Positions 1 through 18,541 are shown, numbered from the stretch's first letter. The stretch: 64,000 bases of DNA from Candidatus Marinacidobacterium sp. (GCA_965220965.1 OZ244852.1:1120001-1184000), one strand, 5' to 3'. Numbers and translations are program-made. Notes: generated by a model from the sequence alone, not told the origin.

Positions 1-953
1 TTTTCCTTCACCATCCGCCGCATCAGATCGGAGGCGTCCACCCGCCAATTCGCCTCGTTCGCGTGCCGGCCGGGTTTGCCGGCAAAGCGGTCTTCGTCCA
101 GCAGGCTCATGAAGAGCGAGAAGTTGGCCTCGATCCCCGAGTGGGGTGTCGCCGTCATGAGCAGCAGGTGGCGAGTCTTCTGCGAGAGAAGCCGACCGAG
201 CTGGAACCGCTTGGTGTACTTGATCTCGTCGCCGTAGTACTGGGCCGACATCTTGTGGGCCTCATCGCAGATCACCAGGTCGTAGCGGCAGTCCCGGGCC
301 CTGATCTGGCTCTGGAGCTCCTCGTTGCGGGACAGCATGTCGAGGCGGGCGATCCCGAACGGGGTCTCGAGGAACCAGTTGCCGCTGGCCGCGGTCTCGG
401 CCTTGTCTTTGGTCAGGATGTCGAACTGGAGCCGGAACTTCTGATCCAGCTCGTCCTGCCACTGCTCCACGAGCGCCCCGGGACACACCACGAGACAGCG
501 CTCCACATCCCCGCGGGCGATCAGCTCGCGGATGAGGAGGCCCGCCATGATCGTCTTCCCGGCGCCCGGGTCGTCGGCCAGCAGGAAGCGCAGCGGCTGG
601 CGCGGCAGCATCGCCTCGTAGACGGCGGTGATCTGGTGTGGCAGGGGCTCGACGTCGGACGTCTGGACCGCAAGGCGCGGGTCGTAGAGGTGCGCGAGGT
701 GGATGCGCTCCGCCTCCGCCGCGAGGCGAAACAGCGCGCCGTCGGCGTCGAACCGAAACGCCGGCTCTTCCGGCGCGACCTCGAGTCGGGACTCGTCGGC
801 GCGGTAGAGAACCCGCTCGTCGAGGCGGCCACCCTCGTCACGCGTGATCAGGGTGAGCGCGTCGTTTCCGTGCCACGTCAGGCTTTCGACGCGGACCGGC
901 GCCGACGCCAGACCGAGAACGTGAACCCCGGTCTGGAGATCTTCGAGCTTCAC
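1..953 (-). CDS. SNF2-family helicase of a DUF499/DUF1156 restriction-like system (5' part; runs off the window)
   Basis: Not in the ORF track (no stop in window). Manual translation from GTG at 953 gives MKLEDLQTG...PLPHQITAVY...RFLLADDPGAGKTIMAG (motif I)...LVICDEAHKM (DEAH)...LLLMTATPH (motif III)...DLMRRMVKE, open to position 1. Confidence 0.9.
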   Translation of the reverse strand, partial: MKLEDLQTGVHVLGLASAPVRVESLTWHGNDALTLITRDEGGRLDERVLYRADESRLEVAPEEPAFRFDADGALFRLAAEAERIHLAHLYDPRLAVQTSDVEPLPHQITAVYEAMLPRQPLRFLLADDPGAGKTIMAGLLIRELIARGDVERCLVVCPGALVEQWQDELDQKFRLQFDILTKDKAETAASGNWFLETPFGIARLDMLSRNEELQSQIRARDCRYDLVICDEAHKMSAQYYGDEIKYTKRFQLGRLLSQKTRHLLLMTATPHSGIEANFSLFMSLLDEDRFAGKPGRHANEANWRVDASDLMRRMVKE

Positions 954-969
954 GCCGGTGTTCCGGTGC

Positions 970-3900
970 TCATTCGTCCTCGAAGCCGTGTTTGGCGAAG
1001 CGGAGGGACTGGCTGTTCTCCCGGACGATCCTGACGATGTCCTCCGGGAACCCTTCGGACCGCTCGGCCGAGACCTCGAGGGTGACCTGGACATCGGCGC
1101 CGATCTGTCCGGAGAGATGAGCGATGACCTCTTCGGCGACTCTGGCCGCATCAGGTCCGATGCGCCCTGGATCGAGCGCGACCGAGCCGAAGAAGCGCCG
1201 TGACGTCGGGACCGGCGGGGGAGGTATCGGCGGATCCGGCGGGGGCACGGGCCCGGGTTCCCGATCCGCGGCCACCGCCTCCGGCCGCACCAGCACCCCC
1301 GGAGAATCGGGCGTCACCCGGTAGGCCTGCCCAGCGCTCACCCCAACGTAGCGCCCTTCTCCTTCATCGTAGGACTCGGCAAAGCCGAAGGTGTCCCGCT
1401 TCCAGCTCAGGAGCCCGAGCCCCTGCGTGATCGTCTCCGCGAGAACCTCCGGTCCCGCCAGACGGGGGCGCTCCAGGAGCTGCGCGTAGTAGTGGACCAG
1501 CTTCCGGATGGAGACGTGGTCGCCGTCCCAGAGCGGCACGCGGTCCAGATCCCGCCGCAGCAGCGTCGCGCCGTACTGCGTGATGAGGAGTTCTTCCTTC
1601 CGGGCCCGGACTGCAACGCGCTCGACGAGACCGCCCGATCCCTTGAGCCGCAGCGCCTCCCAGGTGACCGGGGCCTGCGGCCCCGTCTTCTTGGGCGCCA
1701 GCAACCAGCAGTAGGTCTCGCGCAACTGCGCCTCCACCCCCCGCTCCGCATCGTCCCGCCGCGCCTCCGCCTGCTTTCGTTGCGACGGCGCGAGATTCAG
1801 GCGGTCGGCGTCGTCAACGACCGAGCGCCACGCCAGAAGCCGACGGACCGCGCCTTCGAGATCCTGACTCCTTGTCTTGTCAGCCGCCAGGAACAGCAGG
1901 GTGTTCCGGAACTCCCGTGGCGCGTTGCCGCGCCATTCCAGGATCTTCTGCGCCTTCCCCACGGCGGGGTCATCCCCCTCTCCCTTCACGCACGGTGTAT
2001 CGGTGGAGAGGATCACGAGTCGGACGCGCGTCTCGTCGGGCACATCCCCCGATTCGCGCGGCGCTGCGTGGATCGCCGCGAAATCCCCACGCCTCTTCGC
2101 CTCCTCGCGGAGGCGTTTCCCGACCTCCTGCGCCACATCGTCGCCCCGGCATTCCTGCGCCCGATCCCGGGCGAGCTTGGTAACCGTCGGCTGGATGTCG
2201 TACCAGTAGCGGGAGCCGTCGGCGTAGAGATACGTCCCGCGTTCCGTGAGGCGGCGCAACGCATCCTCGTAGACCGCGATCCGTTGTCCCGGAATGGCGC
2301 ATCCGAGTCGGATGCGGCGGGCCTCGATCCCCTGCTGGGCCGCTTTCTGCTTCGGCGCCGACCCCAGGAATATGGTGCGGGCGACCTTCCCGGCGGCCCG
2401 CACCCGGCCGAAGTTGGCGTTCGACTTATCGATCTCGAGCGGCAGCGATCGGTCGCCATCCACGTCCTGATCGAGGATCGAGTCCCAGGGATCCTCCAGG
2501 TAACGAAGCAGCTCGGACCGCACCGGCCCCGGGTCCAGAGGGATCATGGACGGCAGGATCAGCGGGCTCTGATCGTTCGATTCCCACAGCGAGTGGATGA
2601 CCGCCGCCATCAGGCGAAGGACGCCCCGGGTGCGCTGGAAGCGGAGCCGCGAGGCCCAGTCTTCGTAAAGCCGGTCAAAGACCTCCGGGTGGATCGGGTA
2701 GGCGCTCTCGATTCGCTCGCGGTACGGGACCTCGGAGCAGGCCCTCGGAAAGTCCGCCCGGCCCTCCCGGTAATACTCGGCGAACCGCCGGGCGGTCTGG
2801 TCCCGGTGCTTGTAGTGACTGCCGGGCATGTTCTCGAACAGCCTCCGCCGGACGATCTCGAAGCCCTCCTCCGATGTCGCTGGCTTCCACGATGAGGCCA
2901 CGCGACCGAGAACATTCCGCAGCTTGTCAAGGGCCTGCCGACCCCGCACTCCGCCGACCTCCTCGTCCATGTCGTCGGAGGAGGCGTGTCCCTCGCTGGA
3001 CGCCGGGAGCGAGATCACGAGCAGGCAGTTCTTCGCCTGCTTGACCGTTTCGGTGAGGGCCTGGGCGAACGAGAACTGCGTCTCGAACGATCCACCGGGA
3101 AGGTCGGAGCGGTCCTGAAGCTGGCGGGCGTAGGCCACCCATTCGTCCACCAGGATCAGGGCCGGCCCGTAACGCTCGAGCAACTTGCCGAGCGCCGCCC
3201 CCGGGTTGGTGGCTTTTTCGTCGTCGGTCCGGATCCGGGCGAAGGCCTCCGGGCCGCCGAGTTGCCAGGCGAGTTCTCCCCAGAGCGTTCGGACGATCAC
3301 GCCGTCGGGCTTTTTCTGCGGGCTACCGGGTGAGATGCGGTTCCCGACGAGAACCACGCGCCGCACGTTCGATGGCAGTTCGGTGATCTCCGCCTTGGAA
3401 AGCAGGTTGTCCACACCGTACAGATCCGAGGCCGGCTTTCCGGAAAAGAGGTGGTAGAGCGCCAGCATCGAGTGGGTCTTGCCCCCACCAAAGTTCGTCT
3501 GGAGGTCGACCACCGGGTCTCCGCCAACCCCGGAGAGCCGGCGCACACCCCCGGTCAGCAAGGCCCGGAGTCCCGCGGTGAGATGGGTTCGCCGGAAAAA
3601 CTGGCCGGGATCGCCGTACTCGGCCCCCACGGCTCCCGCATCGTCATGGACGGCGTGGAGATCCGCCGCGAACTCGGCCTGCTGGTAGGCGCCTCCCCGA
3701 ACATCCTCGTGCGGCGTGATGACGTCCCGCCACGGCTTCAGTCCCTCGACCGGCCCCTCCGCAACGCGTTCCTTCCGCTTCCGGCGGCGATCCGCGTCAC
3801 GCGCCCGTTCCTCGTACCGGAGGCGAAGAAGCTCGTCCTTCATCGGGACCAACTGAGCGGCCTGCGAGGCCGACACCGCCGCCAGGAGTCGCTCGGCGTC

Positions 3901-4242
3901 ATCCAGCGCGCGGAAGGCCTCGTCGCCGGAAAACGTCTGCTGGTGAGCCCAACGGTTCCGCGCCGCCTTCAGAGCGTGGATCAGACTCCGCTCGGCGTTT
4001 CCGAGCGGAAACCGGAAGACCGGATCCCAGAGATCGAGCATCACCCCGAGGAGCGCGGCGGCGTCCCATCCCTCCGGGAACGACTTCGCCTGGTTCCGCG
4101 ACCGCGCCAGCGCGGAAAGCGCGTCCCGGCCGACGCGTTGCTTCTCTATTCCGCTCTGGACCTCCCGCTCGATGAAGGGGGCGAGCCCCTGCTGCAGCAG
4201 GTCGAGCGCCTTCCCGACCTGATCGCGGTTCGTCAGTGCCAC
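970..4242 (-). CDS. Swt1-like HEPN + DUF499 AAA+ ATPase (BrxC-related) of a restriction-like defence system
   Basis: 1090 aa. N-terminal HEPN Rx4H motif (RNRWAH); LKPWRDVITPHEDV..YQQAEFAADL; Walker A QTNFGGGKTHS; Walker B ILVDEW; AYPIHPEVFDRLY and FQRTRGVLRLMA typical of DUF499 proteins. Confidence 0.9.
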   Translation of the reverse strand: MALTNRDQVGKALDLLQQGLAPFIEREVQSGIEKQRVGRDALSALARSRNQAKSFPEGWDAAALLGVMLDLWDPVFRFPLGNAERSLIHALKAARNRWAHQQTFSGDEAFRALDDAERLLAAVSASQAAQLVPMKDELLRLRYEERARDADRRRKRKERVAEGPVEGLKPWRDVITPHEDVRGGAYQQAEFAADLHAVHDDAGAVGAEYGDPGQFFRRTHLTAGLRALLTGGVRRLSGVGGDPVVDLQTNFGGGKTHSMLALYHLFSGKPASDLYGVDNLLSKAEITELPSNVRRVVLVGNRISPGSPQKKPDGVIVRTLWGELAWQLGGPEAFARIRTDDEKATNPGAALGKLLERYGPALILVDEWVAYARQLQDRSDLPGGSFETQFSFAQALTETVKQAKNCLLVISLPASSEGHASSDDMDEEVGGVRGRQALDKLRNVLGRVASSWKPATSEEGFEIVRRRLFENMPGSHYKHRDQTARRFAEYYREGRADFPRACSEVPYRERIESAYPIHPEVFDRLYEDWASRLRFQRTRGVLRLMAAVIHSLWESNDQSPLILPSMIPLDPGPVRSELLRYLEDPWDSILDQDVDGDRSLPLEIDKSNANFGRVRAAGKVARTIFLGSAPKQKAAQQGIEARRIRLGCAIPGQRIAVYEDALRRLTERGTYLYADGSRYWYDIQPTVTKLARDRAQECRGDDVAQEVGKRLREEAKRRGDFAAIHAAPRESGDVPDETRVRLVILSTDTPCVKGEGDDPAVGKAQKILEWRGNAPREFRNTLLFLAADKTRSQDLEGAVRRLLAWRSVVDDADRLNLAPSQRKQAEARRDDAERGVEAQLRETYCWLLAPKKTGPQAPVTWEALRLKGSGGLVERVAVRARKEELLITQYGATLLRRDLDRVPLWDGDHVSIRKLVHYYAQLLERPRLAGPEVLAETITQGLGLLSWKRDTFGFAESYDEGEGRYVGVSAGQAYRVTPDSPGVLVRPEAVAADREPGPVPPPDPPIPPPPVPTSRRFFGSVALDPGRIGPDAARVAEEVIAHLSGQIGADVQVTLEVSAERSEGFPEDIVRIVRENSQSLRFAKHGFEDE

Positions 4243-4331: not shown

Positions 4332-5246
4332 TCACCGCGCGCTGCGGGGCCGCCGTGACGCCTCGAAATCACGGGAAGGATCGAGCAGAGCGGCGATCGC
4401 GCTCCCGATCCGTTCGGCCGCCGCCTCCAGATCCCGGTCGCCCACATGGGTGTAGCGCAGGGTCATCCGCGTCCCGCTGTGCCCGAGCAGGCGGGAGACG
4501 ACGGGGAGGGGCGTTCCCCGCAGCACCGCGTGGCTCGCGAACGTGTGCCTCAGATCGTGCAGGCGAACATCCTCGATGCGGGCGTCACGGCGCACCTTGC
4601 GCCAGAGGGAAAGCTCCGAAGATCGAGGCTGGGACGGATCTCGAAGGCAGGGGAAGACCCAGGGGCTCCCGTTGCGAGGCTGCCTCCGCAGGATGTTCCG
4701 GGCGGGCGCATTCAGAAGCACCGTGCGAGCGCCGGTCTTGCTGTCCGGTAGGTGAAGCATGTCGTCGTCCACGTCGCGGCAGCGCAGATGCACGAGTTCT
4801 CCCTTGCGGCAGCCGGTGAGGAGCAGAAGGCGCAGAATGTCCGCCTGTTGGCCTCCGGACCCTCGGCCCCGATGACGATCTATGGCGCGGTGCAGCCTCC
4901 GGACTTCCGTCCGTGACAGGAATCGGGTCCGGCGGACCTCCGGGTTGCGCACGACTCCGCGCGCCGGATTGCGACGGAGATGCCCGCAGGCCACGGCGTG
5001 ATTCAGGATCTGGCGCAGGATGTCGAGGGTCCGGTTGGCGCCGGCCGGGGCGCTCGCGCTGTAGCGGTCGAACCAGGCATGGACGACGCGCGGCTGGATG
5101 CGTGTCACGCGGCGTCCCCCGAACGTGGGCAGCAGTTGGGTTCGCAGCGCGCTGTCCACCCGCCGGCGGGTTGAGGGCTTCAAGCGCTGGTAGCACTCGG
5201 CCCTCCACCGACCGCTCACGAACTCCGCAAACGTTGGCGCGGTCAA
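4332..5246 (-). CDS. Tyrosine recombinase/integrase (copy 1 of tandem pair)
   Basis: Full catalytic set: LLTGCRKGE (R), DSKTG (K), RLHDLRHTFAS (HxxR), LLGH, TLRY (Tyr). No obvious arm-binding N-domain. Confidence 0.92.
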   Translation of the reverse strand: MTAPTFAEFVSGRWRAECYQRLKPSTRRRVDSALRTQLLPTFGGRRVTRIQPRVVHAWFDRYSASAPAGANRTLDILRQILNHAVACGHLRRNPARGVVRNPEVRRTRFLSRTEVRRLHRAIDRHRGRGSGGQQADILRLLLLTGCRKGELVHLRCRDVDDDMLHLPDSKTGARTVLLNAPARNILRRQPRNGSPWVFPCLRDPSQPRSSELSLWRKVRRDARIEDVRLHDLRHTFASHAVLRGTPLPVVSRLLGHSGTRMTLRYTHVGDRDLEAAAERIGSAIAALLDPSRDFEASRRPRSAR

Positions 5247-5248
5247 GC

Positions 5249-6154
5249 TCAGCCCCCGAGCGCCCGCCCGACCCGCTCGGAGGCGAGACGAGCCATGGCG
5301 TCGCCGAAGTGGAGGTAGCGGAGCGTCGTCGCCGGGTCGCGGTGGCCGAGCAGTCGGCCGATGGTCAGCACCGTCTCTCCTCGCCGCAACGCAAGGCTGG
5401 CGTAGGTGTGCCGAAGGTCGTGGAGCCGGACGTCCGGGAGGTCAGCCATCCTTCTCAGGCTCCGCCAGTGGCGCGACAGGGTCTCGGAGGGCATCGGCCC
5501 CGAACCCCGGCTCGCCGGGAAGACCCACACGCTGCGCCGAGGCAGCAGGTCCAGGACCGAGCGCGCCGCGCGCGAAAGCCAGACAGTGCGCGGGCCAACC
5601 TTGCTGTCGCTCAGGAACAGACAGTCCTCCCGGTAGTCGGACCACCGGAGCGCCCGGATCTCGCTCTGCCGGCAGCCGGTCAGCAGGAGGAGCCGGACCA
5701 GGGCGGCAGGTAAGGGGATGTTGCTCTGCTCGGCGGCGAGCGTCGCGCCGAGCCGCCGGGTCTCCTCCATCGTCAGGAAGCGTTGCCTGCCCGGTCGCCG
5801 GTAGCGCCGGATCCCGAGGCACGGGTTCGCGCCCCGTCGCCGGTAGCCGTAGATCTCAGCCTGACGAAGGATGACCGACAGGATGGGAAGCGAACGATCG
5901 GCGGCCGCGGGAGTCTTGTGCAGGGCGGAGAACCACCGCTGCACCTCGGCGCGCGTGATGGAGCGCACCGGTCGCTCCCCGAACCAGGGGAGGATCTGGT
6001 TGCGCAAGTAGATCCGGTTCACCGCCAGGGTGCTCGGCTTCCAGGTCCGGCCGTAGCGTTGGAAGACTTCGCTTGCGACGGCATGAAAGCGGTGGCCGCG
6101 CGTCGGAGAGCGGCGTGGTGAGTCGTGTGTCGGCATGTGAGCAAGGATCGCCAC
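5249..6154 (-). CDS. Tyrosine recombinase/integrase (copy 2 of tandem pair)
   Basis: LLTGCRQSE, DSKVG, RLHDLRHTYAS, LLGH, TLRY. Ends 2 bp before copy 1 starts. Start may be GTG 6154 or a later ATG. Confidence 0.92.
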   Translation of the reverse strand: MAILAHMPTHDSPRRSPTRGHRFHAVASEVFQRYGRTWKPSTLAVNRIYLRNQILPWFGERPVRSITRAEVQRWFSALHKTPAAADRSLPILSVILRQAEIYGYRRRGANPCLGIRRYRRPGRQRFLTMEETRRLGATLAAEQSNIPLPAALVRLLLLTGCRQSEIRALRWSDYREDCLFLSDSKVGPRTVWLSRAARSVLDLLPRRSVWVFPASRGSGPMPSETLSRHWRSLRRMADLPDVRLHDLRHTYASLALRRGETVLTIGRLLGHRDPATTLRYLHFGDAMARLASERVGRALGG

Positions 6155-6247
6155 AAAGGGGAGCCATTGACGGGAGGTTCGGAGTCACAGGAGGGGCGCC
6201 GCGGAACCTCTTGTCCCGCAAGTCTTTGGGGTGTCCTGGAGGCTCCG

Positions 6248-9110
6248 ATACCCTCTACCCTCGTGGCCGCGCGCAAGCTGATCGAGACCTCGCTGCCGCT
6301 GGACGCGATCAACGCTGCGGGCGCTCGCGAGAAGTCCATCCGCCACGGGCACCCTTCTACGCTGCACCTCTGGTGGGCGCGCCGGCCGCTCGCGGCGGCG
6401 CGGGCGGTCCTGTTCGCCCAGATGGTGGACGATCCGGACGAGGAGCGGTTCCCGACCGAGGAAGCGCGGCAGGCGGAGCGTGAGCGCCTGTTCGACATCC
6501 TGCGCCGGCTGGTGCTGTGGGAGAACACCACTAACGAGGAGGTGCTCGAGGAGGCGCGAGAGGAGATCCGCAAGAGCTGGCGGCGCGCGTGCGAGGACAA
6601 CCGCGACCACCCCCGCGCCGCCGAGCTCTTCGACCCGGAGCGCCTCCCCGCGTTCCATGACCCCTTCGCCGGGGGCGGCGCCATCCCGCTGGAAGCCCAG
6701 CGGCTCGGGCTCGAGGCGCACGCCAGCGACCTGAACCCGGTCGCCGTCCTGATCAACAAGGCGCTGATCGAGATCCCGCCGAAGTTCGCCGGGAAGCCGC
6801 CGGTGAACCCGGAGGCGTGCAGCCAGCCGAAGCTCTCGCAGCGGAGCTGGAAGGGAGCGACCGGCCTTGCGGAGGACATCCGCCACTATGGCCAGTGGAT
6901 GCGGGACGAGGCGGAGAAGCGGATCGGACACCTCTACCCGAAGGTCGCGGTCACAACACAGATGGTCGAGGAGCGGCCGGACCTGAAGCGCTACGCGGGT
7001 CGGGAGCTGACGGTCATCGCGTGGCTCTGGGCGCGGACGGTGCGGAGCCCGAACCCAGCGTTCCGGGACGTGGAGGTTCCGCTGGCGTCAAGCTTCGTGC
7101 TTTCGGCGAAGAAGGGGAAGGAGGCGTGGGTGGAGCCGGTCGTGGAGGGGCGCAGCTACCGCTTCCGGGTGCGGACGGGAACGCCTTCGGACGAGGCGAA
7201 GAGGGGCACAAAGTCTGGCGGGAGCGGGAGTTCCTTCCTCTGCCTGTTGTCCGGAGTCCCAATGCTCTTTCCGTATCTGCGATCCGAAGGCAAGGGGGGG
7301 CGCCTGAGGTCCCGCTTGATGGCCGTTGTCGCGGCGGGTGACCGGGAGCGCGTGTATCTGAGCCCCAACCAGGAACAGGTGCGCGCGTCCGTAGCGGCGA
7401 AGCCGGATGTGCTTCCGGAGACAGCTCTTCCGGCTAGAGCCTTGGGCTTTCGCGTTCAGGAATACGGAATGCTCCGATGGTCCGACCTCTTCACCGATCG
7501 TCAGCTCGTTGCGCTGACGACATTCTCCGATCTCGTCGGTGAGGCCATGGATCGCATCCGCCGGGATGCGTCCATAGCGGGGCTCCGGGACGACGGGATT
7601 GCACTGCGGAAGGGCGGCGTTGGCGCGCTCGCGTATGCCGAGGCGGTGGCGGTGTATCTGGCGTTCGCGCTGAGCAAACAAGCCGATTTGGGAAACAGCC
7701 TGTGTCGCTGGGAGCCCCTCGCACAGTGTCCACGTCAGCTCTTTGCACGACAGGCGATTCCGATGGTGTGGGACTTCGCCGAAGGGAATCCGTTGGGGTA
7801 CAGCTCCGGTTCCTGGACGGTTTGCGTTGAGGGGATTGCCAAGGCCTTCACTCGAGCGTTTCGCGTCGCTCGGACAGATGCCGTTGGTGTGGCCCGGCAG
7901 ATGGATGCCCAGTCGCAGGGCCTATCGCGAGGCCGGGTCGTCTCTGCGGATCCACCCTACTACGACAACATCGGCTATGCGGACCTCTCGGATTTCTTCT
8001 ATGTCTGGCTGCGCCGGTCGCTGAGGTCAGTGTGTCCCGAGCTGTTCGCCACCCTGTCAACACCCAAGGCAGACGAGCTCATCGCCACGCCGTATCGACA
8101 CGGCGGCACAGAAGAAGCCGAGACCTTTTTTCTGGAGGGTATGTCGACCTGCCTGCGTCGCATCGCCGTCGATGCACATCCGATGTTCCCGATTTCCGTC
8201 TATTACGCTCGGAAACAGAGTGAGCAGCGGGGTGCCCGGGGAAACAGGACGGGTTGGGAGACATTCCTTGAATCTGTTGTACGTGCCGGTGTTTCCGTAC
8301 ACGGTACGTGGCCCATGCGCACAGAAAACGCGAGTCGAATGACCGGCCAGGGGACGAACGCGCTCGCCTCCAGCATCGTTCTCGTCTGCCGTCGCCGTCC
8401 GGACGATGCCCCGACCGCGTCCCGCCGCGAGTTTGTAACGGCATTGCGCCGGAAACTTCCCGTCTCGTTGCGGCTTCTGCGTAGCGGCAACATTGCCCCC
8501 GTAGACCTCGCCCAGGCTGCTATCGGTCGCGGGATGGCGATATACACCCGTTACGCCCAAGTGCTTGATGCATCCGGAACTCCGGTCCCGGTGCGGGACG
8601 CTCTGGCGTTGATCGACCAGGTCCGCATTGAGGAACTCACACGAGCGGAAGGAGACTTCGACAAGGAGAGCCGCTGGGCTCTCGCCTGGTTCGACAGTCA
8701 CGGGTTCGCCGAGGGGCCCTTCGGCGAGGCGGAGACGCTCTCGACGGCCACGAACACAAGCGTGGCAACGATGGCAAGAGTCGGAATCCTCGAATCGCGG
8801 GGAGGTAGTAGCCCCAGAGGAGGCGGTAGCAGAGTTCCCGGTACGCGGGGACCCGCCCGACAGCGCCCTCCGCACAGGGTCGGGGTGCCGTCCATCACCT
8901 GATCCGGGCGCACGAGTCGGAGGGAGAGGACGGCGCTGCGACACTCGGCAAGAAGCTCGGCGCGAAGGCCGATGCCGCCCGCGAACTCTGCTACCGCCTC
9001 CACTCGGTCGCCGACCGCAAGGGAAGGCCTGCCGAAGCCCTGCGGTACAACACCTCGTCCAGAGTTGGCCGGAGATCCAGAGGCTCATGCGGACGCCAGC
9101 TTGGACGTGA
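6248..9110 (+). pseudogene. DUF1156 adenine DNA methyltransferase, copy A (no clear start codon; frameshifted C-terminal tail)
   Basis: ORF 6125-8902 carries [27 protein letters not shown], motif [10 protein letters not shown] and motif [10 protein letters not shown]. After GILESRGG (~8805) the family-like tail continues in other frames (AVHHLIRAHE..ARELCYRL..EALRYN, then LVQSWPEIQRL) to TGA at 9110. GGAGG 6238-6242 is followed by an in-frame ATA (6248); GTG 6263 is an alternative start. Confidence 0.8.
8522..8555 (+). repeat. Left arm of a perfect 34-bp inverted repeat (candidate inversion site)
   Basis: ATCGGTCGCGGGATGGCGATATACACCCGTTACG; exact reverse complement at 9303-9336. Confidence 0.9.
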
Positions 9111-9114
9111 GCCG

Positions 9115-11604
9115 TCACTGTTCGCTTCCTGATGGTGATCGCGCTGCCGGCGTGTCCTCCAGGCCGCCACAGTGCTCCGTCATCGTGGCGAGCGCCCTCA
9201 CGCTGCCAACCGAGGACGCGAGGCCACGAACCTGCGCGCCGACAACGCTGTCTCCAGTGGCTCCGGGTCCCGCTGGTTCCGGGAGACGCCGCTTCAACGG
9301 CCCGTAACGGGTGTATATCGCCATCCCGCGACCGATGGCGGCCTGCGCGAGGTCAACGGGGGCGATGTTCTCGCTCCGCAGAAGCTGTAACGCCTCCGGA
9401 AGCTCCCGGCGCAGACCCGCCAGAAACTCGCGGCGGGGCGCGGTCGGCGCATCGTCCGGACGGCGACGGCAGACGAGCACGATGCTCGATGCGAGAGCAG
9501 CGACATTCTTCTTGAGATTCCCGGTCAGTTCGGTCCGCATGGGCCAAGTGCCGGTCAGCGAGAAGCCAGACTCGATCACCGCCGCCAGGAAGGTCTCCCA
9601 CCCGGTGCTGGTTGTTCCGGCATCGACCTTCGTCTCTGACTGCTTGAAGGCGTAGTAGATCGTGACCGGGTAGTGCGGATGGGATTGCTCAGAGAGCCGG
9701 CGAAGTGCCCGGGTCATGCCCTCCACGAAGAACTGTCGGGCGGCCTCCCGACTACCGTGCCGGTACGGCGTGGCGACGAGTTCGTCGGACTTTGGTGTCG
9801 CCAGCGTGGCGAGGAGGTCAGAGAAAGCTCGTCTCAGCGAGTGGCGAAGCCAAACGTAAAAGAAATCGGAAAGGTCCGCATATCCGATGTTGTCGTAGTA
9901 GGGCGGGTCGGTCGATACGACCGAGTCCCGCAGGGACCGAATCAGCTGCGCGTCGCCTTGTGTGGCCATGCCAGCGATCGCCAGCGGAGCTGCGACGACG
10001 CACTTGATCGGAAATCTGAGTTGCCCTGCCCAGCTACCGGTGGATGAGCTGAATGGATTGGCCTCGCATGAATCCCACACCATGGGCAGCGCTTGGCGAG
10101 CGAAGACCTGTTGGACGTTTTGCCCTTTCCGGTCCCAGAAGGAGAGCGACGAGTGCCGATTGGCCAACCGACCCACTGCCAGACCGAGATACACCGCCAC
10201 CGCCTCGGCATAGGCAAGCGCGCCAGCCCCGCCCTCCCGCAGCGAAACGCCATCGTCCGGGAGCTCCGCTGCCGCCGCATTCCCGCGGATGCGATCTATC
10301 GCCTCGCCGACGAGATCGGAAAACGTCGTCAAGGCTTGGAGTTGGCGCGAGGTGAAGAGATCTCGCCACTCCACGAAGCCGTAGGGCACACAAGTGCCCC
10401 CCGTGAGCCGCGGTGGCACGAGCCCCTGTGGACGCCATGCCGGCTCTGTCAATCGTGGCTCTGATTCGTGTGGCGGCGAGGGATCGAGGTAGATACGTTC
10501 GCGCTCTCCCTCGGCTACTACAGCTAGCAGGCGGGCACCCATCCGCTTGGCCTGCCCCTCCGCCTTGATGTAGTCGCTGCGGATCGGCGAGGCCGACATC
10601 AGGCACCGGAAGTTCGCTCCTCGCGACAGCTTGGTGCCCTTCCTGGCGTCTTCCGGCGAGGCTCCCCGCCGCACCCGGAACCGGTAACTCCGTCCGTCGA
10701 TCACCGGCTCGACCCACGCCTCCTTCCCCTTCTTCGCCGAGAGCACGAAGCTCGACGCCAACGGAACCTCCACGTCCCGGAACGCCGGATTCGGGCTCCG
10801 CACCGTCCGCGCCCAGAGCCAGGCGATGACCGTCAGCTCCCGGCCCGCATAGCGCTTCAGGTCCGGCCGCTCCCCAACCATCTCCGGCGTGATCGCGACC
10901 TTCGGATACAGGTGGCCGATCCGCTTCTCCGCCTCGTCCCGCATCCACTGGCCGTAGTGGCGGATGTCCTCCGCAAGGCCGGTCGCTCCCTTCCAGCTCC
11001 GCTGCGAGAGCTTCGGCTGGCGTCGCGCCTCCGGATTCACTGGCGGCTTCCCGGCGAACTTGGGAGGGATCTCGATCAGCGCCTTGTTGATCAGGACCGC
11101 GACCGGGTTCAGATCGCTGGCGTGCGCCTCGAGCCCGAGCCGCTGGGCCTCCAGCGGGATCGCGCCTCCCCCGGCAAAGGGGTCGTGGAACGCGGGGAGA
11201 CGCTCCGGGTCGAAGAGCTCGGCGGCGCGGGGGTGGTCGCGATTTTCCTCGCAGGCGCGCCTCCAGCTCTTTCGGATCTCCGCGCGGGCCTCCTCGAGCA
11301 CCTCCTCGTTCGTGGTGTTCTCCCAAAGCACCAGCCGGCGCAGGATGTCGAACAGGCGCTCCCGCTCCGCCTGCCGCGCTTCCTCCCTCGGGAACCGCTC
11401 CTCGTCCGGATCGTCCACCATCTGGGCGAACAGGACCGCCCGCGCCGCCGCAAGCGGCCGGCGCGCCCACCAGAGGTGCAGCGTGGAAGGATGCCCGTGG
11501 CGGATGGATTTCTCCCGCGAGGCGGCGGCGTTGACCGCGTCCAGCGGCAGCGCCGCTTCGATCAGCTTGCGACGGTGACTGACAACGTTCCCTGACGGAC
11601 TCAC
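9115..11604 (-). CDS. DUF1156 adenine DNA methyltransferase, copy B (good start, lacks the conserved C-terminal tail)
   Basis: 829 aa with GGAGG RBS and GTG start; same motifs as copy A ([15 protein letters not shown]). Homology to copy A ends abruptly after [10 protein letters not shown], followed by an unrelated ~60-aa tail. Confidence 0.85.
9303..9336 (-). repeat. Right arm of the perfect 34-bp inverted repeat (candidate inversion site)
   Basis: CGTAACGGGTGTATATCGCCATCCCGCGACCGAT is the reverse complement of 8522-8555 and marks the end of A/B homology. Confidence 0.9.
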
Positions 11605-12012
11605 GATTCAGGCGCCTCCTCGGAAGCGGGCGGCGCGACAGCGTGACGTGTCACGAGCGCAGCTTCCGCAGCAGATCGAGCGTCGTGCCGCTCGTCGGCG
11701 AGCGGAACTTCAGTTGGCGGATCCGCGCGACGATGTCCCGGCGCGCTTCCTCGGTCTCCTGGTTCACCAACGGTTCCCGTTCCTCCTCCAGAGTCCGGCC
11801 GGCGCCGGTGGGAGTGGCCGGGCGACAGCCCTCGATCGGCTCCGCGTCGCGCCCGATCCCATCCGGAAGGCTGTGAGGTCGTTGTCCGCGGCCCCGCGCA
11901 TCGTCCCTGACCATGATCGCGGAGGATGGGCGGTTCAGCCCCGCGGTGTCAATACGCGCGCGCAACACGGAGCCCAGCGGAGAAACCCCCAAACCGCGGC
12001 GTGGCCGGCAGC

Positions 12013-12252
12013 TCAGGCGTCCTCCTCCATCACCCTGTCGAGCGCGTCGCGGTCGGCTATATCGACGCGCGGCGTCCCGCCGCTCCAGCTTGGCAAGGGC
12101 GGGAGAGGCTTGCGAGCGGCTGCCTGGGCTGGTTCGGACAGGACCAGTCGGACCCCTTCCTCGACGAGGCGTGAGACCGTGACGCCGCGACGCGCGGCCT
12201 CCTCGGTTGGGCGTCGCAGGAGCACCTCGTCCAGTTCGAACGTCGCCTTCAT
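12013..12252 (-). CDS. VapB/CopG-like ribbon-helix-helix antitoxin (orphan)
   Basis: 79 aa MKATFELDEVLLRR..EEAARRGVTVSRLVEEGVRLVL..LPPLPSW..VDIADRDALDRVME, typical VapB-type architecture. No PIN toxin downstream. Confidence 0.7.
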   Translation of the reverse strand: MKATFELDEVLLRRPTEEAARRGVTVSRLVEEGVRLVLSEPAQAAARKPLPPLPSWSGGTPRVDIADRDALDRVMEEDA

Positions 12253-12372
12253 GGAGCAACCCTACTCCCGCGCGAGGGAATCAGCAGATCCGGTCCCGCC
12301 CGGTCTGTCTCGGTCCGTCCCGCGCCGCAATGAAGGAAACGCTCCCCCGCTGCGTAGTCCTACAGTAGAACG

Positions 12373-12951
12373 ATGCCGCGCCCTGCCGACGCTTCCGATC
12401 CTGCGGCGCTCGATCCGGAGGAGCAGGAGTGGATCCGGCGCTGCCGGAACGGTTCTCGCCGGGCCTACGAGCCGCTGGTCCGGCGCTACGCCACGTGGGC
12501 GGAGGCCTTCGCGTTCCGGCGGGTGGGCGACCGGGAGGAGGCGCGCGATCTGGCGCAGGAGGCCTTCGTCCGGGCGTTCCACGCGATGCCGCGGTTTCGC
12601 CCGGGGCGGCCGTTCCTGCCGTGGTTCCTCGCGATCCTCGACAACCTCTGCCGGAGCGAAATCCGGAGGCGGCGTCCCCATCTTGGGCTCGACGAGGTGC
12701 GTGAGCCCTCGAACGACGGCGGGATGGGGGATGTCGCGCGGCGACTCGATGTGGCGGAGGGTCTCGCGGCTTTGACCGAGGCCCAGCGGCAGGTCGTCGT
12801 GCTGAAGGATCTCGAAGGCCGGCCTCACCGGGAGGTGGCGGCCCGGCTCGGGATCCCCGAAGGGACCGTGATGTCCCGCCTGCACTTCGCGCGGCGACGC
12901 CTGCGCGAACTGTTTTCCGGCGCCGGACGGCGGCGCGCGGGAGGCGCCTGA
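12373..12951 (+). CDS. ECF RNA polymerase sigma factor
   Basis: Region 2 DREEARDLAQEAFVRAF..FLPWFLAILDN; region 4 HREVAARLGIPEGTVMSRLHFARRRL. Confidence 0.9.
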   Translation: MPRPADASDPAALDPEEQEWIRRCRNGSRRAYEPLVRRYATWAEAFAFRRVGDREEARDLAQEAFVRAFHAMPRFRPGRPFLPWFLAILDNLCRSEIRRRRPHLGLDEVREPSNDGGMGDVARRLDVAEGLAALTEAQRQVVVLKDLEGRPHREVAARLGIPEGTVMSRLHFARRRLRELFSGAGRRRAGGA

Positions 12952-13325
12952 TGATGACGAACGAACAGAAGTCTGCTAGCCCCGCGTCCTCGGGGCGGCT
13001 TCCGGCGGATGCGCCCGGGGTCGAAGATCGGGACATCCGGCCCGCCGACTCCGACGACGCCGCACTCGACCGGTTCTGGCTGGGGGTCTACTCCCGGCTG
13101 GAGCGGGGGATCGCGTGGGTCCTCGTCTCTGCGTCGCTTGCGGCGCTCGGGATGTACGGCGCCTACCACTTCGCGACCGAGTTCCTCGCCGACGGCGAGG
13201 TTCCGATCGTGGTCCGTTTCGGGACCGCCGGGCTGCTGCTCGGTATCCTGCTTCTTCTCCTCGGCGTGGTCCGCGAACGGATCCGCGCCCTCTCCACGGA
13301 TCCGTTCCGGAGGGTCCGCCGATGA
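12951..13325 (+). CDS. Small membrane protein coupled to the ECF sigma (putative anti-sigma-like)
   Basis: Two hydrophobic helices; LDRFWLGVYSRLERGIAW; overlaps the sigma stop codon. Confidence 0.65.
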   Translation: MMTNEQKSASPASSGRLPADAPGVEDRDIRPADSDDAALDRFWLGVYSRLERGIAWVLVSASLAALGMYGAYHFATEFLADGEVPIVVRFGTAGLLLGILLLLLGVVRERIRALSTDPFRRVRR

Positions 13326-13636
13326 TCCTGAGCACAACCTCATCTGTCCCCGGACGCGAAGTCGCCTCCGTCCTGGGAGTCGCCCGGGGCAACACGATCC
13401 GCACCCGCCACGTCGGGCGCGACATCCTCGCCGGGCTGCGAACCATCGTCGGCGGCGAGGTCGTGGGATACACCAAGCTCATGGCCGAGAGCCGCGAACA
13501 GGCCATCGCCCGCATGATCGAACACGCCGAGTCCCTCGGCGCCGATGCGGTGCTGGGCATGCGGGTCAGCACCCAGATGGTCATGGCGGGGGCCTCCGAG
13601 ATCCTCGTCTACGGGACCGCGGTCAAGCTGCGGTAG
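13322..13636 (+). CDS. YbjQ/UPF0145 family protein
   Basis: From ATG 13322: MILSTTSSVPGREV..GRDILAGLRTIVGGEVVGYTKLMAESREQAIARM..LGADAVLG..VYGTAVK. Confidence 0.88.
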   Translation: MILSTTSSVPGREVASVLGVARGNTIRTRHVGRDILAGLRTIVGGEVVGYTKLMAESREQAIARMIEHAESLGADAVLGMRVSTQMVMAGASEILVYGTAVKLR

Positions 13637-13642
13637 GCCGCG

Positions 13643-14131
13643 GTGGCGGACGCCCCCGAGCGGGACGCGGGTCGGTTCTACGAGGACTTCCGCGTCGGAC
13701 AGCGCATCGTCCACCCGCTCGGGAGGACCGTCCACGCGGCGGACAACTCCTGGTTCTCGCTGCTGACCCAGAACCAGAACCCGATCCATGTGGATCACCA
13801 CTTCAGCGAGCGGACGCCCTTCGGGAAGCCGCTGGTGAACTCCTGTCTCACGCTGGCGCTTGCGACCGGACAGTCGGTGAACGACCTGACCCGGAACGTG
13901 CTGGCAAACCTCGGGTGGGAGGATGTCCGGCTCCCGGCTCCGTTCTTCGAGGGGGACACGCTCTATTCGGAGAGCGAAGTGCTCACCGCCCGGGAGTCCC
14001 ACTCCCGGCCGGAGGCGGGCGTCGTCATCGTCCGGACGACCGGGAGGAACCAGGACGGGACCGTCGTGATCTCGTTCCGGCGGACGTTCCTCGTGTGGAA
14101 GCGGGCGCACGCTCCGGCGTCGCCGGGGTAG
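13643..14131 (+). CDS. MaoC-family dehydratase
   Basis: GRFYEDFRVGQRIVH, NQNPIHVD, PFFEGDTLYSESEV hot-dog fold motifs. Confidence 0.88.
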   Translation: MADAPERDAGRFYEDFRVGQRIVHPLGRTVHAADNSWFSLLTQNQNPIHVDHHFSERTPFGKPLVNSCLTLALATGQSVNDLTRNVLANLGWEDVRLPAPFFEGDTLYSESEVLTARESHSRPEAGVVIVRTTGRNQDGTVVISFRRTFLVWKRAHAPASPG

Positions 14132-14169
14132 GGGGCGGGGCCCGGGTCCCCGGGGCGGGCTGGCGCGCC

Positions 14170-15927
14170 ATGATGTCCATCGATCCCGAGCGTTTCTGGC
14201 GGGAGGTCGCCCGGGGCGAGGACACCGCTCTCGAACTGCGCGCGGTCAGGTTGCGGGGCGAGAAAGTCACCAGCCCGCATCGGGATGGGCTGGCGGACGC
14301 CTTCGCAGCGTTCGGGAACGCGTCTGGAGGGCGTCTGGTGCTCGGCGTGCGTAACGACCGGAGCGCCCAGTCGCTCGGTCCTCCACAACTCGATGCGCTC
14401 ATGCGGCTCGTTGAGGAAGCCTGCACCGACGGCATCACGCCGCCACTGGATTACGAAGCGTTTCGGGTCCCCGCGCCGAAGCCTGGTGTCCGCGGGGTTC
14501 TCCTCGTTGACATCCCCGAGAGCGGCGAGGTTCACCGCGCCCCCAGCGGATATCTCCAATGGAAGGGCGACGCGACATGGCGGATGGATGCGCGCGCGGT
14601 GCGACGGCTGTCGCACGACCGCCGGCATGCGGACGCTTCCCCGCATGACGCCCGGGTCGTGCGCGGAACGGGGGTCGACGCCCTGGAACGGGATCTCTGG
14701 CGGCGGTATCTGAGCTCGTGGGTCGAGGACCCGCCCGAGATCTCGCTCGCGAAGCTCCGGTTCGTGAAGGCCGACTCAGCCGGAACGCTGCGGGCCACGG
14801 TCGCCGGGGTCCTGCTGGCGACGAAGGAGCCCCGGGTATGGCTGCCCGGCGCCTGGATCGAGGCGATCTGCTACCGGGGAGACCGGCCGGACGCGGAACT
14901 GCAGTTGGACGCTTCGGACATCACCGGCCCGCTCGACGAGCAGATCCGGGAGGCGACGCGTTTCGTGGTCCGCAACCGTTGGGTCGCCGCCTTCAAGGAT
15001 CCGGCGCGCACCGATGTGCCGCAGTTCAGCGAACGGGCGGTCTTCGAGGCGGTTGTCAACGCGGTCGTCCACCGCGACTACCGGGTGAGGGGATCCCATA
15101 TCCGCCTGCTCCTGTTCGAGGGCCGGCTCGAGCTCCAGTCGCCCGGCGGACTGTCGAACTGCCTGAAGCCCGAGGACCTGCGCACGAACCAGTCCGCGCG
15201 CAACGAGCTGCTGGCCTCCCGGCTGGGACAGTGCGTCGTGGGCGATGTTCCGGGCGCGGGAGGACGGCGCTACTTCATGGACCGGCGGGGCGGGGGGATC
15301 CGCGTCATCGAGGACGAGACCCGGGCGCTGGCCGGGCGACCGCCGGTCTTCGAGCTGCTCGGCGAACGGGAGCTTCGGGTCGTGCTGCCCGCCGCCCGGC
15401 CTCCGGTGGCGGGGGGCGTTGCTGCCCGCGTGACGACGCTTCGGGAGGAGGGAGGGAAACCTCTGGCGGACGCGCACGTGCTGATGCTCTGTCCCAATGG
15501 AACCTACCGGGAGGCGCGCACGAACAGCCTCGGCGAGGCCGACTTCGTCCTGCACTCGCGACTGGCGATGACGGTGCTGTGCGCGGCAGAGGGCTTTCGG
15601 GCGCACGTCGAGCGCGACCATCTCCCCGACGGTCCGCTGGAAGTGGTCATGCGGGCCGCGCCCGAGGGCGGCTCGCTGATCCTCCCTGACCAGGCCGGGA
15701 ATCTGCCCGGCATCCAGGGTCGAATGAACCCGATCCTGGACAACCTGGACCGCGCCTACCTCTATGCGCACAACGTCGCCATCAACGACGGCCAGGCCCA
15801 GCCCGTCCACTTCGCGCTGAACGAGCCGGTGCGCCTCACGGACTCACTCGGGGCGAGGGCGACGCTCTGGTTCCGGGAAATGGTGGGCGCTTCGTGCATC
15901 TTCGATTACGAATTCGATCGGGGATAA
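14170..15927 (+). CDS. AlbA_2/Schlafen-like domain + HATPase_c_4 protein with an extra beta-rich C-terminal domain
   Basis: C-terminal part of ORF 13009-15927 from ATG 14170: GEDTALELRAV..AFGNASGGRLVLGVRND; EAVVNAVVHRDY; RLELQSPGGL; ARNELLA..L; MDRRGGGIRVI. Confidence 0.8.
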   Translation: MMSIDPERFWREVARGEDTALELRAVRLRGEKVTSPHRDGLADAFAAFGNASGGRLVLGVRNDRSAQSLGPPQLDALMRLVEEACTDGITPPLDYEAFRVPAPKPGVRGVLLVDIPESGEVHRAPSGYLQWKGDATWRMDARAVRRLSHDRRHADASPHDARVVRGTGVDALERDLWRRYLSSWVEDPPEISLAKLRFVKADSAGTLRATVAGVLLATKEPRVWLPGAWIEAICYRGDRPDAELQLDASDITGPLDEQIREATRFVVRNRWVAAFKDPARTDVPQFSERAVFEAVVNAVVHRDYRVRGSHIRLLLFEGRLELQSPGGLSNCLKPEDLRTNQSARNELLASRLGQCVVGDVPGAGGRRYFMDRRGGGIRVIEDETRALAGRPPVFELLGERELRVVLPAARPPVAGGVAARVTTLREEGGKPLADAHVLMLCPNGTYREARTNSLGEADFVLHSRLAMTVLCAAEGFRAHVERDHLPDGPLEVVMRAAPEGGSLILPDQAGNLPGIQGRMNPILDNLDRAYLYAHNVAINDGQAQPVHFALNEPVRLTDSLGARATLWFREMVGASCIFDYEFDRG

Positions 15928-17227: not shown

Positions 17228-18541
17228 TCAGTGGATCGCGTCGGGACGCGTGGCCGCAAGTGGGCCCTTCGAGGCCGCTGGGACCGCGCCCCTGGCGAAC
17301 AGGACGCTCCGGTCGATGGATCCCCGCCAGGAACGGAGGATCGGGTGCTCGTCGCCTCGCACGATGTCCGACGCTCCGTCACCGTCCTTGTCGAAGCACA
17401 GCACGTGGTCGGGCTCGACCAGGCCGAGAAGGGCGGGGGAATGCGTAGTCGCGAGGATCTGCGCGTCATAGGCGGACAGGAGCGAGTCCCGGATCGCCTC
17501 CAGCGCCAGCGGATGAATCCCGTTCTGCGGCTCCTTCAGAAGGTAGATCTCCTTGTTGTCAGGGATGTAGGCAAGGAGCGTGAGCGCCAGAAGGCGCATC
17601 GTCCCGTCGGAGGCTGTCCAGGACGGAACATCCACTCCGGTTTCGTACCGAAGAGTCAGGTAGGCGCGCCGGTCCTCGGGTCGAACGACGACTTCGATGT
17701 CCCGCAGGTCTTCGAGCACCGTCCGCACATGCGACAGCCACTCGGCGTAGTCCTCGGGACGCTCCTCGCGAAGCCGCTTGACGACCCAGGGCAGGCTGGA
17801 CCCGTCGTCGGCGAAGCCGTTGACCCCGCGTTCCGGAGGGCTGGGCGCTCGCATCGCCTCGCTGTCGAGAAAGACACGCCGGATCCCGGCGTCCAGCTTC
17901 TGCTTGAGGAAGGTCGCCACCGGGAACTTCTCCGGAGACTCGGGGAGGTTCGCGAGCGTCGATCGGCGAGGACCAAATGAAATGCTCGTGACCCAGCCCT
18001 TGCCGGGCTTCGGCGTGGTCTCGACGTAGTAGCTGTCAGTCCCCTTGTCCGACTTGCTCACGACGGACCGCGTTCCGGACCCGCCTCTCCCGCGCAGGAT
18101 GGTGGCGGGGGGAGGAGCCGGGTCGGGAAAGAGGAGCCTTCGTTCCGGCGCCATCCGGCCCCGCGACGCTTTCTTGAGGACCGCCCGCTCCGACGCAATG
18201 CCAGGTCCGTCGGGACCCTCCCGAATGCCGATCTCGTAACGGAAGACGCGGAAGTCCTCGGGCAGCCGCGGTCGCAGTTCCTCCGGTACGTCCACCTCGA
18301 TGGCGAGCTCGAATCCGGACTGCCCGCCGGGCCGCCCCCAGACCAGATCCCGGAAGTTCGAAGTCCGCTTCACGACGGCGGCTTCGAGGCCGTCCCGCAC
18401 CAGATCGCCGAGGAAGGCGATGGCGTCGAAGAGGGTGCTCTTCCCGCTCGCGTTCGGGCCGATGAGGACGTGAAAGCGGTCCAGCCGGACATCCACGTGG
18501 CGAAGACACCGGTAATTCAGCGCTTGTATCCGGCGGATCAT
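17228..18541 (-). CDS. AAA_21/AbiEii-like ABC-type ATPase (defence-associated), degenerate Walker B
   Basis: MIRRIQALNYRCLRHVDV; Walker A IGPNASGKST; signature ASDGTMRLL; Walker B region YLLKEPQNGIHP; H-loop ATTHSP. Confidence 0.8.
   Translation of the reverse strand: MIRRIQALNYRCLRHVDVRLDRFHVLIGPNASGKSTLFDAIAFLGDLVRDGLEAAVVKRTSNFRDLVWGRPGGQSGFELAIEVDVPEELRPRLPEDFRVFRYEIGIREGPDGPGIASERAVLKKASRGRMAPERRLLFPDPAPPPATILRGRGGSGTRSVVSKSDKGTDSYYVETTPKPGKGWVTSISFGPRRSTLANLPESPEKFPVATFLKQKLDAGIRRVFLDSEAMRAPSPPERGVNGFADDGSSLPWVVKRLREERPEDYAEWLSHVRTVLEDLRDIEVVVRPEDRRAYLTLRYETGVDVPSWTASDGTMRLLALTLLAYIPDNKEIYLLKEPQNGIHPLALEAIRDSLLSAYDAQILATTHSPALLGLVEPDHVLCFDKDGDGASDIVRGDEHPILRSWRGSIDRSVLFARGAVPAASKGPLAATRPDAIH

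Follow-up and report, generated by a model that had tools for sequence, protein, structure and literature searches.

We analyzed a 64,000-nt stretch of one strand of the genome of Candidatus Marinacidobacterium sp. (GCA_965220965.1, OZ244852.1:1120001-1184000; G+C content, 70.8%), hereafter the window. Within it, two convergent genes for the DNA methylase HmaB, hmaB-A and hmaB-B (A and B), enclose a 747-bp segment that encodes a C-terminal tail and is bordered by short inverted repeats. In the reading that we favor, with a probability of roughly 0.78, a programmed, recombinase-driven inversion of this tail cassette switches the full-length form of the methylase from A to B and back. The features central to this reading are as follows, with positions counted from the first letter of the window.

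6263-8555, plus strand: hmaB-A body, with a DUF1156 domain, an N6-adenine methyltransferase core, and a variable middle (Pfam DUF1156; PADLOC HmaB, 1312 bits, profile positions 8-860/967).
9303-11604, minus strand: hmaB-B body, 767 open codons without the tail (PADLOC HmaB, 1227.5 bits, profile positions 5-782/967).
8556-9302, no strand assigned: putative invertible tail cassette, 747 bp; the tail is encoded from 8556 to ~9132 on the plus strand (~191 aa), and a spacer of ~170 nt follows.
8522-8555, plus strand: left copy of the 34-nt site, coding for 11 residues; candidate crossover site at which homology breaks in related loci, with the same left edge as in the metagenome contig L126.
9303-9336, minus strand: right copy of the 34-nt site, an exact inverted copy.
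6272-7213 with 10630-11571, no strand assigned: long 5' inverted repeat, 942 nt at 91% identity, representing homogenized N-terminal parts of A and B.
4332-5246, minus strand: int1, tyrosine recombinase, 304 aa (Pfam Phage_integrase, Phage_int_M, and SAM_3).
5249-6154, minus strand: int2, tyrosine recombinase, 301 aa, directly upstream of int1 and 43% identical to it.

The complete alternative bodies hmaB-A and hmaB-B face each other; the two share a conserved N-terminal part but have separate starts and different middle (target recognition) parts. The promoter-less cassette between the two bodies encodes the sole copy of a ~190-aa C-terminal helix-turn-helix (HTH)-like tail. It is bounded by two inverted ~34- to 40-bp sites that double as codons for ...IG(R/P)GMA(I/V)YTRY, and under the proposed mechanism, the adjacent, putatively cotranscribed int2-int1 pair would recombine these sites and flip the 747-bp cassette. 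Depending on the orientation, the tail would thereby continue the reading frame of A or of B, with the other body ending in a short, meaningless extension. The population would then be a mixture of cells that differ in which methylase is full length, resulting in different modification and defense specificities. We infer that the inversion occurs in this genome, that int1 and int2 catalyze it at this 34-nt site, and that A and B differ in their target motifs; the tail-less form of the methylase is assumed to be inactive.

A first-pass annotation of this DNA had described a perfect 34-bp inverted repeat around a 747-bp segment, and this anatomy holds: the reverse complement of 9303-9336 matches 8522-8555 at 34/34 positions. 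The 34-nt run terminates a 196-nt inverted repeat of 86% identity (8360-8555/9303-9498), whose arms lie 747 nt apart, and is the longest perfect run of the 3' half. The whole 3.25-Mb genome contains only two copies of the site and only these two HmaB copies. At the protein level, residues 50 to 810 of A and 12 to 767 of B are 71% identical; the match ends at an identical 10-residue stretch, and the sequences are unrelated beyond it. The abrupt loss of A-B similarity directly after the 34-mer had been noted earlier, as had the wobble differences just upstream (ATT/ATC, GTA/GTT, GCC/GCG, and GCT/GCC), all of which are present in the A-B alignment. Because both site copies share the same frame relative to the repeat, flipping of 8556-9302 would fuse B in frame to AQVLDASG..., as the same annotation had proposed; the predicted product reads ...YTRY-AQVLDASG.... 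The locus thus has inverted repeats inside coding sequence together with in-frame alternative products, as is characteristic of a gene-altering inversion. In the present orientation, A occupies an open reading frame (ORF) at 6125-8902 on the plus strand, divergent from int2, and its start is probably the GTG at 6263, which agrees with the starts of homologs. The ORF of B (11604-9115, minus strand) converges on A and reads past its body into the unrelated sequence at 9302-9115, an extension of 62 aa in the assembly and of ~35 aa in a read-derived contig version (run X1, described below).

The two recombinases are supported as such by Pfam PF00589 scores of 71.5 and 64.5 bits, and the catalytic motifs GCR, HDLRH, LGH, and RY(T/L)H are kept in both int1 and int2. 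Neither belongs to the XerC or XerD family, as their NCBIfam scores are 34 to 67 bits, compared with cutoffs of 330 to 335 bits.

The first-pass annotation had held that the switch works by donating a C-terminal domain rather than by swapping a target recognition domain. The first half of this claim is borne out by a ~190-aa tail that begins in a loop after a helix. In an AlphaFold2 model of the intact protein from a related locus, L033 (18 aligned homologs; mean predicted local distance difference test [pLDDT] score, 68.8), the junction falls after residue 776, in a four-residue loop (774-777) between a helix (758-773) and a strand (778-780). The modeled tail (777-955; pLDDT mostly 77 to 89) consists of a helix-helix-hairpin unit and, after it, a helical bundle. 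A search of PDB sequences for a solved relative gave 0 matches, and Foldseek retrieved nothing from the PDB at an E value of ≤0.001. According to a recent study, three HTH-like domains form the C-terminal end of BR-type methylases (bioRxiv 10.1101/2025.10.09.681413). The second half of the claim does not stand, as the target recognition region would still change upon inversion. Divergence between A and B is concentrated in residues ~350-470, 510-590, and 700-745, and their synonymous identity is 0.74 to 0.97 in the 5' repeat and 0.14 to 0.6 in the middle. As it is in the middle that the two bodies chiefly diverge, the net effect would still be a change in target recognition.

The design is conserved among relatives with linked recombinases. 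When 301 genomes of the phylum were searched for HmaB (E ≤ 1e-30), 49 yielded matches, and four of these (G000, G148, G186, and G196) carry neighboring copies on opposite strands. In G148 and G186, the match of the second HmaB copy ends at residue 811 or 815, a perfect run of 38 to 39 nt abuts the homology break, and the copies are separated by two integrase genes. The integrases sort into two sets of orthologs, with 59 to 69% identity across genomes and 38 to 45% between paralogs. A profile search of species-representative genomes with int1 retrieved 66 loci of two classes. The 19 most closely related belong to Acidobacteriota, Gemmatimonadota, and Pseudomonadota, with int1 identities of 64 to 71%; int2 lies directly upstream of int1 in all 19, with identities of 61 to 72% except for a 76% fragment in L029. 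HmaB is encoded beside the int2-int1 pair in 18/19 of these loci, and two oppositely oriented copies are present in 17/19, the remaining two being short contigs. A single tail serves two bodies in 12 of the 13 loci in which both junctions are visible, the exception being L042 (the locus of G196), which has two tails; L030, which is not among the 13, has no tail.

The arrangement of these parts varies. Most commonly the bodies are divergent around the integrases, while a layout convergent around the tail, like that of the window, is found in L038 and probably in L043. Two other loci, L034 and L037, have a full gene plus a cassette that covers only residues ~265 to 810, a layout that would call for two nested inversions. 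In L034, the repeats are 100% identical over 854 nt and 250 nt. In these "Ca. Multivorans"-type loci (L034:2300-9200, L037:3600-9200, and L030), the 5' homology edge of the cassette is sharp and falls at the RIGHLYP codons (CGCATTGGCCATCTGTATCCCC), which suggests that another type of site exists and that the middle part is exchanged through two inversions. Separately, the tail-less junction of L029 (13240-13300) carries a duplicated core (GTATACACC-AGG-GTATACACCCGCTAC), with a truncated int2 and a fragmented second body; the core duplication may be the footprint of aberrant recombination in a decaying switch.

The break point is conserved as well. Homology ends 1 to 11 nt past the same TAC codon in 11/11 loci with a clean junction pair, the window included, a count that leaves out L029 (local duplication at the junction) and L030 (one junction only). 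All of these 11 loci have 18 or more perfectly identical nucleotides directly at the break, and the tail-less flank differs between loci, with at least five unrelated contexts that include a helicase gene, a Schlafen-like gene, int2, and the 3' end of the tail. In the metagenome contig L126, a body-less tail is preceded by ~40 nt of body end with 3 mismatches, and the left edge of this stretch coincides with the left edge of the 34-mer in the window. The constancy of the break despite varied flanks, together with the ~40 nt of L126, argues for a short, defined site rather than diffuse homology. Along with the linked recombinases of relatives and the two orientations described below, these comparisons also favor the earlier proposal that the 34-mer is the recombinase crossover site.

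The L126 contig (149-4853; also L105 and L160) has a layout of its own: a plus-strand body with its site is followed by hmaC, which is encoded on the other strand, and then by a second, directly oriented site and the body-less tail on the plus strand. As hmaC here lies between two sites, a third site or an excision or insertion event is proposed as a possible origin.

Both orientations of the switch were found in a homologous locus. A single circular chromosome record from Longimicrobiales begins with L032 and ends with L033, each ~19 kb long. When the two are oriented by int1, they align collinearly over the middle 10.2 kb, which comprises body-int2-int1-body and is 98.2% identical, and their flanks are exchanged and reverse complemented, at 98.3% and 95.4% identity. 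The tail beside hmaC accordingly belongs to body X in one copy and to body Y in the other. Differences between X and Y stay linked to the body until ~200 nt before the junction, are absent from the last ~200 nt, and are linked to the flank directly after it. The simplest reading is that L032 and L033 represent the untrimmed terminal overlap of a circular assembly that holds both switch orientations, though a true tandem duplication or two strains could also give rise to this pattern.

An exchange of this kind might also come about if the cassette inverts by RecA-dependent homologous recombination, with the recombinases having another job and the 34-mer being merely the last stretch of homology. 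The long inverted repeats of the window (942 nt at 91% and 196 nt at 86%, with perfect runs of up to 67 nt) would suit such a process, as would the location of the L032/L033 exchange within a ~1.1-kb repeat of ~98% identity and the 854-nt repeat of L034 at 100%. Exchange within the 5' repeat would, however, leave the tail unmoved, and the homology adjacent to the tail, 34 perfect nucleotides within 86% identity, is a poor RecA substrate. L126 retains only ~40 nt, the break point is constant while the flanks vary, and in 18/19 cases, an orthologous recombinase pair accompanies such loci. We therefore regard a purely RecA-dependent inversion as unlikely and favor recombinase-driven inversion.

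Within the window, the tail of A appeared at first sight to be broken. In a tblastn comparison with canonical tails, the assembled tail is canonical in the frame of A only to ~8794, then continues in a second frame (8887-9051) and a third (9054-9098). Contigs from run X1 (Logan contigs assembled at k=31, about 100x depth) include one of 803 nt that covers exactly 8526-9332. The window differs from this contig by 21 substitutions and 6 one-base indels, all within 8809-9278 and hence inside the cassette, and the X1 contigs adjoining the cassette (1528 and 1513 nt) show 0 differences from the window. After correction by X1, the tail is one open frame, ...GILESRGGRVRLLAPEELP...AVHHLIRA...ARELCYRL...YNTLVQSWPEIQRL...*, with the canonical HmaB C terminus and a stop codon at ~9130-9132. 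The tail gene of A is intact, and the frameshifts in the window are assembly errors confined to the invertible segment. A long-read consensus of a metagenome-assembled genome (MAG) can thus be corrupted exactly at an inversion switch, where an intact gene comes to look like a pseudogene.

The errors themselves are informative. Most of the substitutions (18 of 21) cluster as a patch at 8804-8841, in which 19 nt of the window are an exact inverted copy of sequence from the 8979-9016 region, 140 to 210 nt downstream. The patch is complementary to 8979-9016 at 31/38 positions, compared with 23/38 for the next best region in 10 kb and 18/38 for the X1 version. When the true segment is reverse complemented and globally aligned to itself, the 19-mer lands on 8805-8852 under 3/3 scoring schemes. 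As the inverted-copy patch sits where flipped reads would align, it hints that consensus polishing was contaminated by reads from a flipped cassette and that flipped molecules were among the reads. The pair formed by 8804-8841 and 8979-9016 was also considered as a nested inversion site; this was ruled out, as the pair is absent from the read-derived X1 version.

These findings bear on a further explanation, in which the locus is a frozen relic, either of a partial inverted hmaB duplication or of a once-active switch, with B a leftover copy and no inversion at present. Recombinant junctions were not seen for this genome, in which the X1 contigs (k=31) break at the repeat; the identity run taken alone is within chance; and degenerate relatives exist, namely, L029 with its truncated int2 and fragmented second body and the tail-less L030. 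Both recombinase genes and both bodies are nevertheless intact in the window, as is the tail in the read-derived contig. Moreover, A-B identity increases toward the junction, and the assembly errors occur only in the cassette, with their inverted-copy patch. A relic is thus about as improbable, in our estimation, as inversion by RecA, and an operating switch remains the preferred reading.

Several observations weigh against that reading or temper it. First, judged from this window by itself, the 34-mer does not stand out statistically. Six perfect inverted runs in the 5' parts (35, 35, 38, 41, 64, and 67 nt) exceed it in length, and at a local synonymous identity of ~0.78, a run of 11 identical codons has an estimated P value of ~0.07. 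The first-pass annotation had pointed to rare codons within the run; ATA, GGT, and CGT are indeed minority codons (7%, 12%, and 10% usage), but 3/11 AT-ending codons are unexceptional at a third-position G+C content of 0.80 (P = 0.375). Second, the site has no obvious dyad symmetry and no demonstrated recombinase-binding arms; past the break, the tail-less side shows only a weak G..G..GT pattern where a conserved right arm was sought. Third, the common break point could be partly inherited from one ancestral duplication. Fourth, the L032/L033 crossover maps only to ~200 nt inside a ~1.1-kb near-identical repeat, the copies are 95 to 98% rather than 100% identical, and RecA-type exchange could have produced the arrangement. 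Finally, no junction-spanning read from this genome was obtained: the X1 contigs break at the 34-nt repeat, and Hi-C run X2 yielded 0 reads. Because k=31 is shorter than the 34-nt repeat, the X1 breaks carry no orientation information.

The site sequence must also be read with caution. An exact 25-mer of the site had 0 matches in metagenome contigs. A degenerate motif, ATGGCN-RTW-TACAC-N-CGN-YACG, retrieved 84 metagenome stretches, of which 80 were examined and 67 encode HmaB. By map count, 49 of those 67 are single-copy HmaB loci in which hmaC comes directly after the tail, with no integrase on the fetched stretch, a result that also counts against the switch. The expectation that the site DNA would be specific to integrase-linked loci and missing from single-copy genes is thus not supported. 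As the motif is common in single-copy HmaB, the site sequence is not diagnostic of recombination and is largely dictated by the protein; judged by these matches, the motif is mostly a property of the protein subfamily. For the same reason, we dropped a wobble pattern, (G/A)T(A/T)-TAC-AC, as a marker of the switch. It had been present in 12/13 switch loci, compared with a predominance of GTC/GTG-TTC among 11 single-copy genes of the phylum, a comparison in which the phylum sample is confounded by distance and the metagenome search is biased toward the motif.

The recombinases have kin elsewhere. The other 47 of the 66 int1 loci are in Alphaproteobacteria MAGs (54 to 62% identity), where the pair occupies a ~2.4-kb unit with many copies per genome and no HmaB. 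In a quick tree whose root is unsure, this multicopy set forms one clade (98% by the Shimodaira-Hasegawa-like approximate likelihood ratio test [SH-aLRT]) apart from the HmaB-linked set. The unit looks like an undescribed mobile element with two tyrosine recombinases. Its left end (L044-L090, e.g., L057:8463-10886) consists of ACACC, 6 to 7 variable nucleotides, and GCACC-N3-4-GGTGCTAAC; by eye, ACACC comprises the outermost conserved letters in ~27/30 unit ends.

That the nearest other relatives of int1 and int2 (54 to 62%) reside in such a multicopy Alphaproteobacteria unit without HmaB is what would be expected if the recombinases came from a mobile element that landed by chance beside hmaB, with the duplication a by-product of insertion. 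The conserved left end of the unit is, however, absent from the 19 loci and the window, bar one misplaced partial string match. In addition, the HmaB-linked pairs are separated from the multicopy clade by the 98% SH-aLRT branch of the quick tree, and they always flank HmaB copies, in several layouts. We consider a chance landing very improbable. A more specific version of the inversion reading, which we offer tentatively and think somewhat doubtful, is that a dedicated heteromeric recombinase pair acts on an asymmetric ~34- to 40-bp coding site and that this pair is a domesticated sister or source of the 2.4-kb element, the ACACC end of which matches the junction core TACAC(C)-CGN-TAC. If true, a pair of recombinases of a transposon type, together with the core site on which it acts, would have been recruited to pass a protein domain from one alternative defense enzyme to another, and the module would have spread among three or more phyla.

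The methylases and recombinases are part of a larger locus, the other annotated genes of which are listed below.

1-1151, minus strand: 5' part of hmaA, an SNF2 helicase with a NOV_C/DUF3883-type C terminus that continues beyond the left edge of the window.
970-4242, minus strand: hmaC, a HEPN(Swt1-like)-DUF499 AAA+ ATPase (Pfam DUF499 and HEPN_Swt1; PADLOC HmaC, 1023.6 bits).
13009-15927, plus strand: Schlafen/AlbA_2 + HATPase_c_4 gene (Pfam), which recurs on the tail-less side in relatives.

The complete hmaA ORF is available in L093 (9384-13151, minus strand), which is identical to the window as far as position 1151. HmaA matches Pfam SNF2-rel_dom, Helicase_C, and NOV_C and PADLOC HmaA (1469 bits); the PADLOC models BrxHI/II also match this helicase but more weakly than HmaA. 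Given the contiguous hmaA, hmaB, and hmaC genes and their PADLOC matches, the locus is a complete Hma defense system (HmaA, HmaC, and two HmaB proteins) plus two tyrosine recombinases. Hma-type loci are also named DUF499-centered BREX-related type 1 systems (bioRxiv 10.1101/2025.10.09.681413; PMC11232893), and the fusion of HEPN to DUF499 in hmaC matches the published description of type 1. Neither PglX, PglZ, nor BrxC is among the PADLOC matches listed for the locus proteins, and the locus is thus not a BREX type 1 pglX locus by this test. A and B score 100.7 and 113.7 bits against NCBIfam DUF1156_antiphage (NF042963), below its cutoff of 1000, and are not members; they belong to another subfamily of the same superfamily.

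Several neighboring genes may relate to defense. Homologs of the Schlafen/AlbA_2 + HATPase_c_4 gene lie beside the locus in L028 (5234-6544), L032 (2769-3995), L095, and L150; the protein has weak PADLOC matches to Argonaute-associated models and may be an accessory of these Hma loci. Genes for AAA_21/AAA_15 (AbiEii-like, OLD-type) ATPases occur near the Hma locus both in the window (17228-18541, minus strand) and in G148 (L022:2297-3475, minus strand), and the region therefore looks like a defense island. A 375-aa ORF at 11648-12775 has no family match in Pfam, NCBIfam, or PADLOC.

Hma or DUF499-centered systems are very widespread relatives of BREX, reported from 3592 taxa in the BR-systems paper (bioRxiv 10.1101/2025.10.09.681413), and a natural switch bears on how they set and change specificity. 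It would offer two HmaB enzymes of one host for comparison of their motifs. The tail-less and tailed forms of the same body would provide a clean test of the role of the C-terminal HTH-like tail, and the locus would supply a compact, two-recombinase, ~34-bp inversion module that operates inside an ORF. Hma would also be added to the list of defense systems with known phase variation (Type I, Type IIG, BREX-1, and DISARM).

Programmed inversions are known in BREX type 1 pglX (Lacticaseibacillus rhamnosus and Brevibacterium casei), in DISARM drmMI-like genes, and in Type IIG genes (Milman et al. 2023, PMC9881135), and inversions of Type I hsdS are known, e.g., in Streptococcus pneumoniae (PMC9881135 and PMC7672463). 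We found no literature report of inversion in DUF1156 or Hma loci, in a search that covered main texts rather than the supplementary tables that may list such loci. The terms invert, recombinase, and phase variation do not occur in the text of the BR-systems paper (bioRxiv 10.1101/2025.10.09.681413), and "DUF499" is absent from the main text of PMC9881135. The present locus is like pglX, drmMI, and Type IIG loci in that a defense N6-adenine methylase would be rebuilt by inversion at inverted repeats within coding sequence, with a recombinase adjacent and silent partial or alternative copies in inverted orientation. L034 and L037 resemble the middle-cassette, two-inversion design of the loci in PMC9881135.

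Unlike pglX, the methylase here belongs to an Hma/BR type 1 system, and two complete, separately started bodies compete for one C-terminal cassette. A single inversion would thus give two full products with no nonfunctional intermediate, and two conserved recombinases are present rather than one. In hsdS invertons, site-specific inversion takes place at short repeats within coding sequence, a tyrosine recombinase is adjacent, and half-target-recognition-domain cassettes of a small specificity subunit are exchanged. The present locus would likewise have phase-variable specificity by inversion between short repeats within coding sequence; unlike in hsdS, a constant C-terminal domain would pass between two ~770-aa enzyme bodies. 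As with XerC/XerD, two paralogous tyrosine recombinases are encoded or act together, and a site without dyad symmetry might be expected if two different proteins bind its halves; unlike for XerC/XerD, there is no dif-like site and no chromosome resolution context here. In the R64 shufflon and the phage Mu G segment, a constant N-terminal part carries the promoter, and variable C termini flip. The combination of a constant protein part with alternatives by inversion is shared with these systems, but the polarity is reversed, as the starts lie in the variable parts and it is the constant C terminus that would flip. What sets the design apart from the known cases is this reversed polarity with a shared constant C-terminal cassette, the conserved recombinase pair, and the kinship of that pair with a multicopy two-recombinase element.

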